A DNA stretch of 64,000 nt from an uncultured Pseudomonadota bacterium (GTDB lineage: Bacteria > Pseudomonadota > Alphaproteobacteria > JACZXZ01). The notes below the pieces were generated by a model, which saw only the letters and a list, made by a program, of their open reading frames with translations, did not search any database and had not been told where the DNA came from. Location: assembly GCA_963749075.1 (NCBI GenBank), contig CAVVLJ010000004.1, positions 96,001 to 160,000 of the forward strand. The letters are read 5' to 3'. The position numbers and the translations under genes are program-made. Positions 53,485 to 57,535 of the stretch are shown piece by piece (position 1 is the stretch's first letter; each line of letters begins with the position of its first letter).

Positions 53485-54663
53485 TTACGCCGCCTCGCCG
53501 CACGCCTTCTCCAAGATCGCCACCATCTCGTCGATCTCCTCGCGCGTGACGGTGAGCGCCGGCATGAAGCGCAACGAGTCCGGGCGCGGCGCGTTCAAGA
53601 GGAGGCCGTGCTCGCGCGCGAGCTCCGCTATGCGCGGGGCGATCGAGCACTTCAAGTCGAGCGCCAGGAGGAGCCCGCGCCCGCGCACCTCGCCGAAGCC
53701 GTGGCGCTCGGAGAGCTCGGCAAGCCGTGCCGCGAGATGGGCGCCGGTCTCGCTCACCCGCTCGAGGAAGCCCGGCCGCGTCACCTCCTCCATGACGGCG
53801 CAGCCGACCGCGGTCATCAGCGGATTGCCGTTGAAGGTGCCGCCCTGGTCGCCGTGGGCGAAGCAGCAGACCTCCTGCCGCGCCACCAGTGCTGCGAGCG
53901 GCACGCCGCCGCCGAGGCCTTTGCCGAGCGTCATGATGTCGGGAAGGACGCCGGCGTGCTGATAGCCGAAGAGCTTGCCGGTGCGGCCGACGCCCGTCTG
54001 GATCTCGTCGAGGATGAGGAGGATGCCGCGCCGCGTCGTGAGCTCCCTCAGCGCGCGCAGATAGTCGTCGCCCGCCTCGAACACCCCCGCCTCGCCCTGG
54101 ATGGGCTCGAGCATCACGGCCACAGTGTTCTCCGTGATCGCCGCCTCGGCCGCGGCGAGATCGCCCAACGGCACCTTCTTGAAGCCCGGCACCTTGGGCT
54201 CGAAGAGCGCCTCCCACTGGGGCTTGCCCGAGGCGGACATGGTGGCAAGGGTGCGGCCGTGGAAGCCGTGCTCCATGGTGACGATCTCGTAGGCGCCGCC
54301 GCGGTGGAGCTGGCCCCACTTGCGCGCGAGCTTGATGGCGCCCTCGTTGGCCTCGGCGCCGCTGTTGGCGAAGAAGCTCTGGTCGAGGCCGCTCCCGCGC
54401 GCGATGAGGGCGGCTAAGCGGATCATCGGCTCGTTCAAATAGGCCGGGCTGCAGTTCATCAGCCTGGCGGCCTGGCGGGAGAGCGCCTCGCGCAGCACGG
54501 GTGGCGAGTGGCCGAGGCAGTTGACCGCCCAGCCCTGCACGAAGTCGAGATAGCGCTTGCCGCTCCGGTCGATGAGCCAGGAGCCGCGGCCCTCGACGAA
54601 GACTTGGGCGGGCCGGCTGGTGATCTCCATGAGGGCGGTCGCTTGCGGGCTTGCGTCGGGCAT
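53485..54663 (-). CDS. argD: Acetylornithine aminotransferase
   Basis: [67 protein letters not shown]; RBS AAAGGAG. Confidence 0.9.
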
Positions 54664-54680
54664 GGCGTCTCTCCTTTGCA

Positions 54681-54712
54681 TAATAAAAAACCCCGCCGAG
54701 AGTCGGGCGGGG
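54681..54712 (-). terminator. Intrinsic (attenuator) terminator in the argD leader
   Basis: CCCCGCCCGA-CTC-TCGGCGGGG followed by TTTTTTATT on the argD strand, upstream of the RBS. Confidence 0.82.
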
Positions 54713-54739
54713 TCCGGATCGTGCATCGTGCGAATTGAG

Positions 54740-54814
54740 CTAGCGCGCGCGCACCTCTCCCGTCCCGCCAAGGCTGCGGCGGCGTCGGACGCGGATGTTG
54801 AGCGCGCTATGCAT
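54740..54814 (-). CDS. Putative Arg-rich leader peptide (24 aa, [24 protein letters not shown])
   Basis: Short ORF with CGC GTC CGA CGC CGC CGC, between the promoter and the terminator of argD. Confidence 0.72.
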
Positions 54815-54821
54815 GGGCGCA

Positions 54822-54850
54822 TCAATACGTGAGGTGCTGGGGATTGTCAA
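54822..54850 (-). promoter_or_regulatory. sigma70 promoter of the argD leader
   Basis: TTGACA-N17-TATTGA, ending 7 nt before the leader ATG. Confidence 0.68.
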
Positions 54851-54930
54851 TTCCGCCGCGGGGCGGCGTTGTCCGCATGTCGTCGCGGGGTTATGATGCG
54901 GAGAGAAAACGGGGTCGGGGGAGGTCGGGG

Positions 54931-55744
54931 ATGCGCCTCACGCAAGCCCAGCTCGAGCAGTACGACCGCGACGGCTTCCTCGTCTTCCCGGCGCTGTTCT
55001 CGCCCGAGGAGGTCGCGGTGCTGCGCCGCGAGGTGGCGCGCGTCGCCATGGTCGAGACCGACGCCGTGGTGCGCGAAGGGGAGGCCCAGGCGCCGAAGTC
55101 CCTCTTCCGCCTCCACGAGAGCGACGGCCCGACCGCCTCCGAGGCCTTCCGCGCCGCCTGCCGCCTGCCGCGCACGCTCGGCGTGGCGCGCCAGCTCCTG
55201 CGGCGACGAGCGCCTCTACCTCCACCACTCCAAGGTCAATGCCAAGGCGGCGATCGAGGGCTCGGTGTGGCCGTGGCACCAGGACTACGGCGCCTGGATG
55301 CGCGACGGCATCGCCGAGCCGGCGATGGCGACCTTCATGGTGGCGCTCGACGACGCGAGCGAGTTCAACGGCTGCCTCTATCTCCTCCCCGGCAGCCACC
55401 GCCTGGGGCGCACCGAGCCCTATTTCGACACCTCGACCGCCTACAAGTTCTGGGCGGTGCCGCCCGAGCGCATCAAGGAGATGCTGGCCGAATGCCCGCC
55501 GCCCGTGGCCGTCGCCGGCCAGGCGGGCATGGGTGCCGTCTTCCACTGCAACCTCATGCACGCGTCGGGCCACAACCTCTCGGCCCACGACCGCTGGCAG
55601 ATCTATTTCTGCTACAACACCGTGGCCAATCATCCGCATGACGTCGAGAACCCGCGCCCCGACTACGTGCGCTCGCGCAACTGGACGCCGCTCAAGCTCG
55701 CCGCCGAGAACGCGGTGCTGGAGGCTGGGTTGGCGCGGGCGTAA
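54931..55744 (+). CDS. Phytanoyl-CoA dioxygenase family (EctD/proline hydroxylase-like); +1 frameshift near 55200
   Basis: LTQAQLEQYDRDGFL; then Y.HHSKVNAK, WPWHQDY, NGCL..LPGSH, H.SGHN. Confidence 0.83.
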
Positions 55745-55764: not shown

Positions 55765-55869
55765 ACCCCCCACCCCAACCCTCCCCCTCAAGGGGGGAGG
55801 GGGATTTGCCGAGCTCGTACATTTATTAATTTTCCCTCCCCCCTTGAGGGGGAGGGTAGGGAGGGGGGT
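55765..55869. repeat. Paired inverted REP-like element (CCCTCCCCCTCAAGGGGGGAGGG)
   Basis: Third copy of the family; between convergent genes. Confidence 0.8.
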
Positions 55870-55884
55870 ACTGCTTCGAGCCCC

Positions 55885-57535
55885 TCACCCCTCCCTCAAC
55901 CGGCTCGGGTGCAGCTCGCCTGCGGCCTCGAGCACCGGGTAGGCGACCGAGCAGATGTGCGAGTGGACTCGCTTCAGGTCGCGCAGCACGTCGAGGTGGA
56001 GCGAGCTCGTCTCGATGCTTTCCGGGCGGCCCTCGCGCAGGCGCGCCAGGTGGTTCTCGGCCGCGGCCATCTCGGCCTCGCGGAGGCTTGCCTTCTCCTC
56101 GAGGAGCCGGCGTGCGGTCCTGGTGTCGCCCGAGATGAAGACGCCGAAGGCGAGCTTCAAGTTGTCGACCACGCGGCGGTGAAAGGCCTCGAGCTCCGCC
56201 GCCCCCTCCTTGGAGAACTGCAGCTTGCGCTTGATCTTCTTGGCCGCGAGCTCCATCAGGTTCTTGTCGATGATGTCGCCGATGTGCTCGAGGTTGATGG
56301 TGAAGGAGATGATCTCCATCGCCCGGCGGCCGTCGGCGTCCTCCAGGCTCTCGCGCGTCACCTTGGTGACGTAGAGCTTGATCGCCTCGTCGAGGCGGTC
56401 GACCGCGTTGTCCATGCGCGAGATCTCGGCGACCATCTTGCGGTCGTCGTTCATCATGGCAACGATGGTCTGCTGCAGCATGGTCTCGACGATGTCGCCC
56501 ATGTGGAGGGTCTCGCGCGCGGCGCAGGCGAGCGCCACCGCGGGGGAATCGATCACCGTCTCGTCGAGATAGCGAGGTGCCGCGGGATCGACGGGCTTCT
56601 TCGCATCGGGGAGGAGCTTGACGAGGAGCCAGGCGAGGCCGTCGAGCGGCACGATGAAGAGCAGCGCCAGCACGAGGTTGAAGGCGGTGTGGAAGTCGGC
56701 CACCTGGCGCGCCGGGTCGGGGTCGAAGCGTGCGAGGAGGTTGGCCAGGGGATGGAGGAAGGGGAGGGCTAAGGCCGTACCGACGAGGCGGTTCATGAGG
56801 TTGCCGAGCGGGAGGCGCCGGCTCGCCGGGTCGCCGCGCTTGCCGCCCTCGATGAGCGGGTTGATGGCGCTCCCGAGGTTGGCGCCGAGCACGAGCGCCA
56901 GGGCCGCCACGGGCGTCACGTAACCGGCGTAGCTCAACGACATGATGAGCAGCACGCTGGCGACGCTCGAGTGCGCGAGCCAGGTGAGCGCTGCGGCGAG
57001 CAGCACGTTCAAGGCGGGCTCGCCGGTGAGGGCTGCGAGGAGGCTGCGCACGGCGGGAGCGCTCTCGGCGGGGGCGAGCGTCCCGAGGAGGATGTGCAGC
57101 GCCAGCAGCATGAGGCCGAGCCCGATCGCGACGCGGCCCAGATCCCGCGTGCGCGTCTGGCCGCCGCGCTTGAAGGCGATGACGCCGAGCGTGAGAAGGA
57201 TCGGCGCCAGCCAGGAGACGTTCGAAGGAGAGCACCTGGACGATGAGCGTGGTGCCCACGTTGGCGCCCAGCATGATGGCGAGTGCCGGCACGAGGGCGA
57301 CGAGCCCGCTCGCGGTGAAGGAGGTCGCCATGAGGGCCGCCGCCGTGCTGCTCTGGAGGATGGCGGTCACCAGCACGCCCGAGAGCATGGCGCTCACGCG
57401 GTTGCGGAGTGCCGTCGAGAGCAGGCGCCGCAGGTCGGAGCCGAAGGCGCGCACGATGCCGCTGTGCACCATGTGCAGGCCCCAGAGCAGCAACGCGATG
57501 CCGCCCATCACGTCGAGGAGGATCATGCTTCCCAT
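55885..57535 (-). CDS. Na+/Pi cotransporter with PhoU domain; +1 frameshift near 57222
   Basis: LQSSTA, LGANVGT, HSSVASV, LGANLGS, NLEHIGDII, TSSLHLDVLRDLKR. Confidence 0.88.

Follow-up and report, generated by a model that had tools for sequence, protein, structure and literature searches.

Does the short, arginine-rich open reading frame (uORF) that lies between a promoter and an argD gene of an uncultured alphaproteobacterium couple the expression of this gene to the supply of arginine? The window analyzed here, 64,000 nucleotides of contig CAVVLJ010000004.1 (assembly GCA_963749075.1, GTDB lineage JACZXZ01), had been given a preliminary description based on its letters alone, in which the region upstream of argD was read as a candidate ribosome-mediated transcription attenuator; all the elements of that reading, from the promoter to the argD start codon, are found on the minus strand at the positions assigned to them. 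The type of mechanism is a textbook one; for arginine, to our knowledge, no classical attenuator is known, and no description of a version acting on argD was found in the literature covered. For the control of arginine synthesis in proteobacteria that lack ArgR, such a leader offers a concrete candidate answer.

The arginine-rich leader of argD

The layout and the terminator sequence, as well as the in-frame codon conservation considered below, are seen directly in this analysis. The features of the locus are as follows.

54845..54850, minus strand: -35 box TTGACA (sequence)
54822..54827, minus strand: -10 box TATTGA, without the final T, after a 17-nt spacer from the -35 box (sequence)
54815-54814, minus strand: predicted start site (ortholog start sites are mapped at the ATG or 1 nt before it)
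54740..54814, minus strand: leaderless uORF of 24 codons (P0002), ATG at 54814, TAG at 54742-54740 (conserved layout)
54776..54793, minus strand: control codons Arg8 and Arg10-13, segment 1 of the protector hairpin
54739..54769, minus strand: segment 2, from GGCGGG to the stop codon (masked folding, word table)
54706..54730, minus strand: segment 3, the antiterminator partner of segment 2, which takes in the terminator's 5' arm (masked folding, word table)
54683..54712, minus strand: intrinsic terminator (3:4) with U-tract (terminator listing, folding)
54670..54677, minus strand: argD Shine-Dalgarno sequence AAAGGAGA (sequence)
53485..54663, minus strand: argD paralog, acetylornithine transaminase NF002985/PRK03715 (618 bits, cut-off 568)

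The gap between the -10 box and the uORF ATG is 7 nt on the minus strand. The control codons of the window read CGC GTC CGA CGC CGC CGC, with Arg in five of the six. Segment 2 contains GGCGGGACGGGA (54769-54758) and segment 3 contains TCCGGACCCCGCC (54718-54706), both on the minus strand. The terminator begins 27 nt past the uORF stop codon and consists of a hairpin (54712-54691, -14.6 kcal/mol) and the U-tract TTTTTTAT (54690-54683); the argD start ATG is at 54663 on the minus strand. The terminator was listed by the consensus scanner and the promoter was absent from the listing, having been missed because its -10 box lacks the last T. Folding of the whole leader was uninformative, being no better than that of shuffled sequences (z -0.91).

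The source genome (5.49 Mb) was scanned for the combination of a -35-like box, an ATG at 35-38 nt, a short ORF and a U-tract terminator. Of 2269 box-plus-ATG sites, 857 had a short ORF and 12 of these a terminator; among the 12, the window leader alone combines an Arg run with a biosynthetic gene behind it. Because only one of these 12 sites fits and the same layout recurs in 65 of 183 orthologs (see below), the layout is not a chance arrangement. An N-terminal extension of argD, for which an open frame runs from 54825 across the leader, was considered and rejected: the alignment with relatives begins at the ATG at 54663, and the open frames of these relatives vary between 423 and 453 codons.

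A second argD gene and the arginine genes of the genome

The product of the leader-linked gene is, judging by its profile match, a member of the acetylornithine transaminase family (NF002985/PRK03715); no gene on the same strand follows it. The preliminary description had overlooked that this gene is a second argD copy: a canonical argD, with 42% identity to the one in the window, is located on another contig (C20), and the gene behind it is one that we take to be argF. No such leader was found within 420 nt upstream of argB, argC, argG, argH, argJ or the canonical argD of the source genome, and the window site was the sole match when this genome was searched with the RNA model. In a plasmid collection, the gene is present in 3 Ralstonia records.

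ArgR (PF01316) was not found in the source genome (96% complete) by searches that detected their controls in 9 of 14 cases. A wider survey, which covered 50 of 76 candidate loci and many genomes that are incomplete MAGs, detected the ArgR C-terminal domain in none of the 29 leader-bearing genomes versus four of the 21 leader-less ones, all four from Rokubacteria/Methylomirabilota. In L200, the gene directly upstream of argD presumably carries the ArgR C-terminal motif. Within Proteobacteria, ArgR is reported only in gammaproteobacteria in the available part of PMC5343134.

A gene for a GNAT acetyltransferase (Pfam) directly follows the leader-linked argD in two loci (L111, 1032-1484, minus strand; L013, 3173-3817, plus strand), ORFs resembling it are located behind argD also in L063 and L139, and in L278 an Arg leader lies ahead of an acetyltransferase-like gene. 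Possibly, the GNAT gene behind leader-linked argD encodes an alternative ArgA.

Conservation of the leader among argD orthologs

Orthologs were drawn from GTDB genomes (best 80 of 533 confirmed), relatives, metagenomes (best 80 of 531), Burkholderiales (32 of 201 genomes above the cut-off, 30 used) and Rhizobiales (3 of 201). Loci with less than 54% identity were removed and duplicates were merged, which left 183 distinct orthologs. The uORF was picked through its position relative to the promoter, irrespective of its Arg content. The layout of a -35 box followed after 35-38 nt by an ATG, then an Arg run and a terminator, is present ahead of 65 of the 183 orthologs, with 63 distinct peptides, and 118 fail the promoter-anchored rule. 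In 64 of 70 promoter-anchored calls, for which 32-39 nt were permitted, the -35-like box is located 35-38 nt before the uORF ATG. A looser, CGA-based rule added 10 loci, two of them with duplicate peptides, and is circular because of this basis.

Conservation of the Arg run in orthologous leaders, on which the preliminary description made its reading depend, is borne out: at least 3 Arg within 5 codons are found in frame in 56 of the 63 peptides versus 12 and 11 in the other frames. Read in frame, 28% of the uORF codons specify Arg; the two other frames give 11% and 14%, and the argD coding sequences 5.7%; the first triple CGN is in frame 0 in 43, in frame 2 in 2 and absent in 18 of the 63.

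An argD leader with an Arg uORF is found in many alpha- and beta-proteobacteria, including four of the five other genomes of the window's genus, with one at a contig end. In a tree of 128 proteins (FastTree), which excludes leader-less metagenome rows, leaders occur on most proteobacterial branches and the leader label needs 14 changes; the leader is missing in the Rokubacteria/Methylomirabilota rows, in Desulfobacterota-type rows and in scattered beta-proteobacteria. An exact look-up of 5 leader peptides in a protein collection gave no record.

Two groups of relatives depart from this build. In L013, L019, L021, L048, L050 and L205, the stop codon of the uORF directly adjoins the Arg run, a C/U-rich tract comes next, and no U-tract terminator was found in these six. 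An RBS-occlusion switch was considered for them and is unsupported by folding; Rho-dependent control would be a guess. Upstream of argD in L045, L079, L138, L139, L199 and L213, the peptides alternate Arg and Ala, with CGA first or second in the cluster, and the antiterminator peak comes several codons later in four of these leaders.

Predicted folding switch and proposed mechanism

How the leader would refold as a ribosome advances was predicted by a ribosome walk, in which the RNA was masked through +13 from the P site, codon by codon, and the score was the cost of freeing the terminator 5' arm in a transcript that ends immediately ahead of the 3' arm. For a ribosome whose A site is on Arg10-13 of the window uORF, this cost is 11.7, 11.5, 13.1 and 10.1 kcal/mol; it is 4.4 kcal/mol one codon further on, 3.5 at the stop codon and 3.1 without a ribosome. 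The five controls, E. coli trpL, hisL, thrL, leuL and pheL, all yielded the same shape of profile, with a peak of 7-15 kcal/mol on or just after the control codons and 0-2 kcal/mol at the stop codon or ribosome-free. In the stalled fold, masked folding pairs GGCGGG (54769-54764) with CCCGCC (54711-54706), and in the ribosome-free RNA codons 3-24 fold as a long protector hairpin (1:2), itself a candidate polymerase pause site that would couple ribosome and polymerase. The antiterminator suggested in the preliminary description corresponds to the model structure with a ribosome on Arg10-13; the pairing consists of 6 perfect pairs (GGCGGG/CCCGCC) and two imperfect inner helices, not of a 12-bp duplex.

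The walk was extended to 61 leaders (two of the 63 had no hairpin called, and 4 of the 61 are without a true U-tract). The median cost is 12.3 kcal/mol on the core, 3.7 at the stop codon, 4.9 without a ribosome and 6.8 with segment 2 shuffled, and the core exceeds the stop by 3 kcal in 56 of the 61. At most 1 of 20 segment-2 shuffles was as good in 35 of the 61 leaders; the window leader was matched by 3 of 20. The peak falls within the core or up to 2 codons past it in 32 of the 61, and several beta-proteobacterial leaders peak 3-10 codons after the core. Cognate duplexes of segments 2 and 3 from 57 leaders average -18.8 kcal/mol versus -15.0 kcal/mol for non-cognate ones, with the duplex of the window ranking 19th and 13th. 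Covariation of the 2:3 helix is limited: among its words, 14 of 17 are compatible and 3 have an A-C mismatch, and the 3 compensatory cases all come from one clade. Plain alignment folding yields the terminator and part of 1:2 only, since the window's genus has its switch word shifted by one base. At equilibrium, the terminator probability is 0.61-0.81 in the stalled state versus 0.91 otherwise, and trpL, hisL and leuL behave alike; because the terminator still dominates, the predicted switch must be kinetic, that is, co-transcriptional.

Thus supported by the conserved in-frame Arg run, the start sites of orthologs and the position-dependent model fold, the attenuator interpretation can be stated more specifically: the argD leader is likely a classical ribosome-mediated attenuator that senses the charging of Arg-tRNA (ICG). 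Among the features of attenuators, a short uORF leading an amino-acid biosynthesis gene, tandem end-product codons in frame with drifting flanks and an intrinsic terminator between uORF and gene are present; mutually exclusive protector, antiterminator and terminator structures, with the antiterminator formed on stalling, are present in prediction only.

For the operation of this attenuator, we infer translation of the uORF, stalling and a response to arginine. Transcription would start at about the ATG, as mapped in orthologs, and a ribosome would load on the leaderless RNA. With plentiful arginine, the ribosome would reach the stop codon and cover segment 2, so that the terminator forms and an RNA of about 130 nt is released; without a ribosome, the predicted 1:2 hairpin would have the same outcome, termination. 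Under a shortage of arginine, stalling would occur at codons 10-13 (CGA-CGC-CGC-CGC), so that the ribosome covers segment 1 alone; segment 2 would capture the terminator's 5' arm while the 3' arm has yet to be transcribed, and the polymerase would enter argD. This read-through step is predicted by folding and would be kinetic rather than an equilibrium effect. The near-invariant, rare CGA may sharpen the stall; with no tRNA-Arg(UCG) among the tRNAs called, it would be read by inosine wobble. The outcome would be extra, starvation-induced ArgD in a genome where ArgR was not found.

Choice of arginine codons

The core Arg codons of the 63 peptides comprise 112 CGC, 53 CGT, 48 CGA, a single CGG and no AGR. 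In the adjacent argD genes, CGG accounts for 23%, AGR for 7.6% and CGA for 3.6% of Arg codons, and the overall CGA usage of the source genome is 3.8%. Kin were collapsed to one representative per cluster before codons were counted: with clusters at 80% identity, non-ICG codons number 0 of 131 and CGA is present in 31 of 38 clusters; at 72% identity, the numbers are 0 of 46 and 14 of 15 clusters.

CGA, CGC and CGU are decoded by one tRNA-Arg(ICG), which in E. coli is the starvation-sensitive Arg isoacceptor. The tRNA-Arg anticodons called in the source genome are ACG, CCG, CCT, TCT and one odd GCG; tRNA-Arg(UCG) (anticodon TCG) was not found among these calls, and therefore CGA, CGC and CGU would share tRNA-Arg(ICG). 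Attenuators prefer the codons that are most sensitive to starvation (PMC1183508), and the leader is a natural test for the selective-charging theory of control-codon choice. The avoidance of CGG may be partly structural, because 79% of the third bases of CGY are paired in the predicted folds; the A of CGA is paired in 44%.

Leaders of the same build with other codons

A covariance model built from 19 alpha-type Arg leaders matched 28 of 149 alphaproteobacterial genomes, with 41 places listed, of which 21 were examined, plus one more from a search of the window's genus. The build of the argD leader recurs at 15 of the 21 places: Lys-codon leaders ahead of dapA (3 places), Thr/Lys-codon leaders ahead of asd (5), Thr-run leaders ahead of thrS (3) and an Arg leader ahead of a canonical argD (1, with a GTG start); the scaffold was also found before an acetyltransferase-like gene, with Arg codons (1), and before small ORFs (2). 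Of the other examined places, 5 resemble plain terminators after gene ends and 1 is unassigned. The control codons of the scaffold follow the downstream pathway, which provides a natural control. In the ribosome walk, most scaffold homologs have the high window over Lys or Thr codons; the exceptions are L266 (peak on Arg-Lys), L268 and L273 (weak contrast) and L270 (no terminator called), and the asd leader of Bradyrhizobium (L235) gave a flat walk with the automatically chosen hairpin. No paper joining these leader and codon terms with dapA, asd, thrS or argD was found in the literature search. A leader scaffold with swappable codons would be useful for amino-acid biosensors.

The scaffold-homolog loci of the alphaproteobacterial genomes are L262-L270, L272, L273 and L288. 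The thrS gene behind the Thr leader is a short copy without the N-terminal part of the profile. In a genome of the Bradyrhizobium order (G301), a leaderless Thr/Lys-rich uORF and a U-tract terminator are located upstream of asd (L235, 1470-1630, plus strand). A further scaffold homolog lies ahead of a small gene in G007 (L259, 1450-1900, plus strand), presumably of the DUF1127 type. The 'long PhaR box' reported before asd (PMC10888616) is the start of the leaderless Thr/Lys-rich uORF, and in S. meliloti a DUF1127 gene is attenuated through a uORF by a different, Rho-like mechanism (PMC12218461).

What could arrest the ribosome

The same switch might be thrown by a different signal, either a general slowing of translation or a ribosome-targeting antibiotic acting at Arg-X-Arg. 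The uORF contains R-V-R-R-R-R, Arg-X-Arg is a macrolide arrest motif, and a DUF1127-like gene lies behind one of the scaffold homologs. Leaders with uORFs in Alphaproteobacteria can sense the inhibition of translation (PMC12218461, bioRxiv 10.1101/606483). Nevertheless, the target gene is argD, the codon set is limited to one isoacceptor family, and the scaffold homologs switch to Lys or Thr along with the downstream pathway, all of which makes a general or antibiotic signal very unlikely.

A nascent peptide that arrests the ribosome together with free ornithine, arginine or a precursor, in the manner of SpeFL, TnaC or the fungal arginine attenuator peptide, would also place Arg codons in the uORF, and such codons do feature in orf34 of the Salmonella speF leader (PMC6386406). 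An arrest peptide is disfavored because the residues flanking the Arg run are not conserved: outside the run, the commonest residue at any position is found in no more than 10 of 45 peptides. The start of the run is not fixed either, ranging from codon 5 to codon 17, and none of 4 leader peptides had a match in NCBIfam. We accordingly give hardly any credence to a peptide sensor and retain the charging of Arg-tRNA as the signal.

Published transcripts of orthologs

The RNA nc5U30 of Burkholderia cenocepacia J2315, reportedly defined by Sass in 2017, spans a region that begins at the uORF ATG and ends at the U-tract. It was detected by dRNA-seq as an RNA of 156 nt between BCAL2700 and BCAL2701, and the same RNA, under the name Bc_KC_sr7, was detected by Northern blot (PMC6321483 Table S1). 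For BCAL2701, a class III aminotransferase gene of B. cenocepacia, the primary start site is at 2967641, 194 nt before the gene (PMC4603805), which is the A of the uORF ATG; the distance from this ATG to argD in the Burkholderia-type locus L111 is 147 + 47 nt, equal to these 194 nt. In Bradyrhizobium diazoefficiens, the start site of blr4582 (argD2) maps 37 nt downstream of the T that opens TTGAC (PMC4842269); the uORF ATG is at 38 in homologous loci, so this start probably falls 1 nt before the ATG. The start sites of both orthologs are thus on or adjoining the uORF ATG and upstream of the hairpin, where the preliminary description had expected transcription to begin. For orthologs of the window gene, published data thus already include a leaderless start and a short RNA that ends at the terminator.

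These RNAs can also be viewed as the product of a trans-acting sRNA gene, followed by a leaky, unregulated terminator and containing an incidental uORF. The corresponding Rfam family, RF02884 (BcKCsr7), is typed 'Gene; sRNA' and matches the L111 leader at 161.9 bits; the RNA is sufficiently stable to be seen on Northern blots (PMC6321483), and rnTrpL shows that attenuator RNAs can act in trans (PMC6614838). What is conserved across lineages, however, is the in-frame codon run and the spacing rather than RNA sequence. RF02884 (gathering score 59 bits) had no match to the window leader at E values up to 5 and none at 19 other loci tested. Pairing of the leader to the start regions of six other arg genes was at background level (fractions 0.40-0.89 of 400 background genes). 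An sRNA gene of this kind is accordingly scarcely plausible, and a trans role could coexist with attenuation. BcKCsr7 (RF02884, identical to nc5U30, Burkholderia sRNA 7) is the Burkholderia-type member of the leader set: like the window leader, it has an ATG at its 5' end, a CGA-led run of four Arg, a stop codon, a terminator and a PRK03715 gene. It is filed as an sRNA, and the available part of PMC6321483 mentions neither a uORF nor attenuation; if the attenuator reading is true, this Rfam family is to be reclassified as an attenuator.

A DNA-binding factor, for example PhaR, might instead control argD mainly through its promoter, the leader being a vestige. The B. diazoefficiens gene blr4582 is 48.9-fold up in the phaR mutant, from which the authors infer direct repression, and PhaR shifts the blr4582 promoter fragment at concentrations of at least 1 uM (PMC10888616). 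The blr4582 start-site peak is 93 in nodules versus 8 in free-living cells (PMC4842269). We hold promoter-level control to be practically negligible all the same: the binding is weaker than at the genuine target phaP1 (PMC10888616), asd, also high in the phaR list, has a leaderless Thr-rich uORF and a terminator in Bradyrhizobium, and a vestige would not retain frame and codon choice through 38 lineages. Amino-acid shortage could therefore explain the two phaR-mutant effects. A metabolite-binding riboswitch was rejected, the conservation being bound to the reading frame, with several folds among orthologs and no Rfam riboswitch match on the leader.

On balance, we favor a broader version of the attenuator reading, held with less confidence than the mechanism at argD itself. 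Alpha- and beta-proteobacteria that lack ArgR would carry a true arginine attenuator in the form of a portable leader-plus-argD module tuned by the rare, inosine-wobble CGA; in Alphaproteobacteria, one leaderless scaffold would have been reprogrammed through changes in its control codons alone (Arg for argD, Lys for dapA, Thr for thrS, Thr/Lys for asd); the RNA left by termination in the module would be BcKCsr7; and relief of attenuation would account for the 49-fold increase of argD2 in the phaR mutant. The start site of blr4582 in B. diazoefficiens USDA 110 is already mapped, so the proposal is testable now.

Relation to known systems

The leader resembles E. coli trpL, hisL, thrL, leuL and pheL in having a short uORF with tandem end-product codons, 1:2, 2:3 and 3:4 pairing, an antiterminator window that one and the same model places over the control codons, a U-tract terminator 20-60 nt past the stop codon and biased synonymous codons (PMC1183508). 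Unlike those attenuators, it has arginine codons and a leaderless uORF, and it precedes a single extra-copy gene instead of the main operon. There is no sequence homology between them: nothing came near its gathering score in an Rfam search of the window, the best match being Trp_leader at 19 bits versus a gathering score of 41.

S. meliloti trpL/rnTrpL (PMC6614838) is likewise an alphaproteobacterial leader with a leaderless uORF and a three-stem switch; rnTrpL is described as leaderless there, as the preliminary description had stated for rhizobial trpL. In S. meliloti, attenuation affects only one of the dispersed genes of the pathway, as it would here, and the terminated RNA accumulates, as in the Burkholderia ortholog. 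The differences are the Trp codons of rnTrpL and its demonstrated trans role, of which the pairing scan found no sign here.

Comparative surveys of attenuators are said to have been made by Vitreschak in 2004 and Lopatovskaya in 2010. In the literature covered, which leaves out most subscription papers, no terminator/antiterminator attenuator on an arginine-biosynthesis gene was found; a term search did not find argD in the available parts of PMC8632094, PMC5314783 and PMC2965389, and the accessible part of PMC7829197 added nothing for bacteria. The ArgR regulon (PMC5343134) does the same job of matching the expression of arginine-biosynthesis genes to supply, by means of a protein repressor. 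As proposed for the argD leader, Arg codons of a uORF report arginine through ribosome pausing in Salmonella speF orf34 (PMC6386406) and S. aureus rbfL (PMC13009471). The former differs in acting through Rho, RNase G and RBS access on a polyamine gene, and the latter in RBS occlusion at AGA/AGG codons, with control of a biofilm gene; in neither, as described in the available texts, does an intrinsic terminator with its antiterminator govern a gene of arginine biosynthesis.

Other features of the genome and the window

Another promoter-anchored short ORF with a terminator is located on contig C20 of the source genome (G000, position 245474, plus strand), ahead of an ABC ATPase-like gene, and is a possible antibiotic-type attenuator. 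Divergent to the argD leader, the window contains a PhyH-family dioxygenase gene in two frames (54829-55744, plus strand; Pfam positions 1-82 and 74-211), which is either split by an assembly indel or a pseudogene; a promoter-like site at 54869-54897 (plus strand) faces this split gene. A Na/Pi cotransporter gene (55826-57535, minus strand) is also split across two frames.
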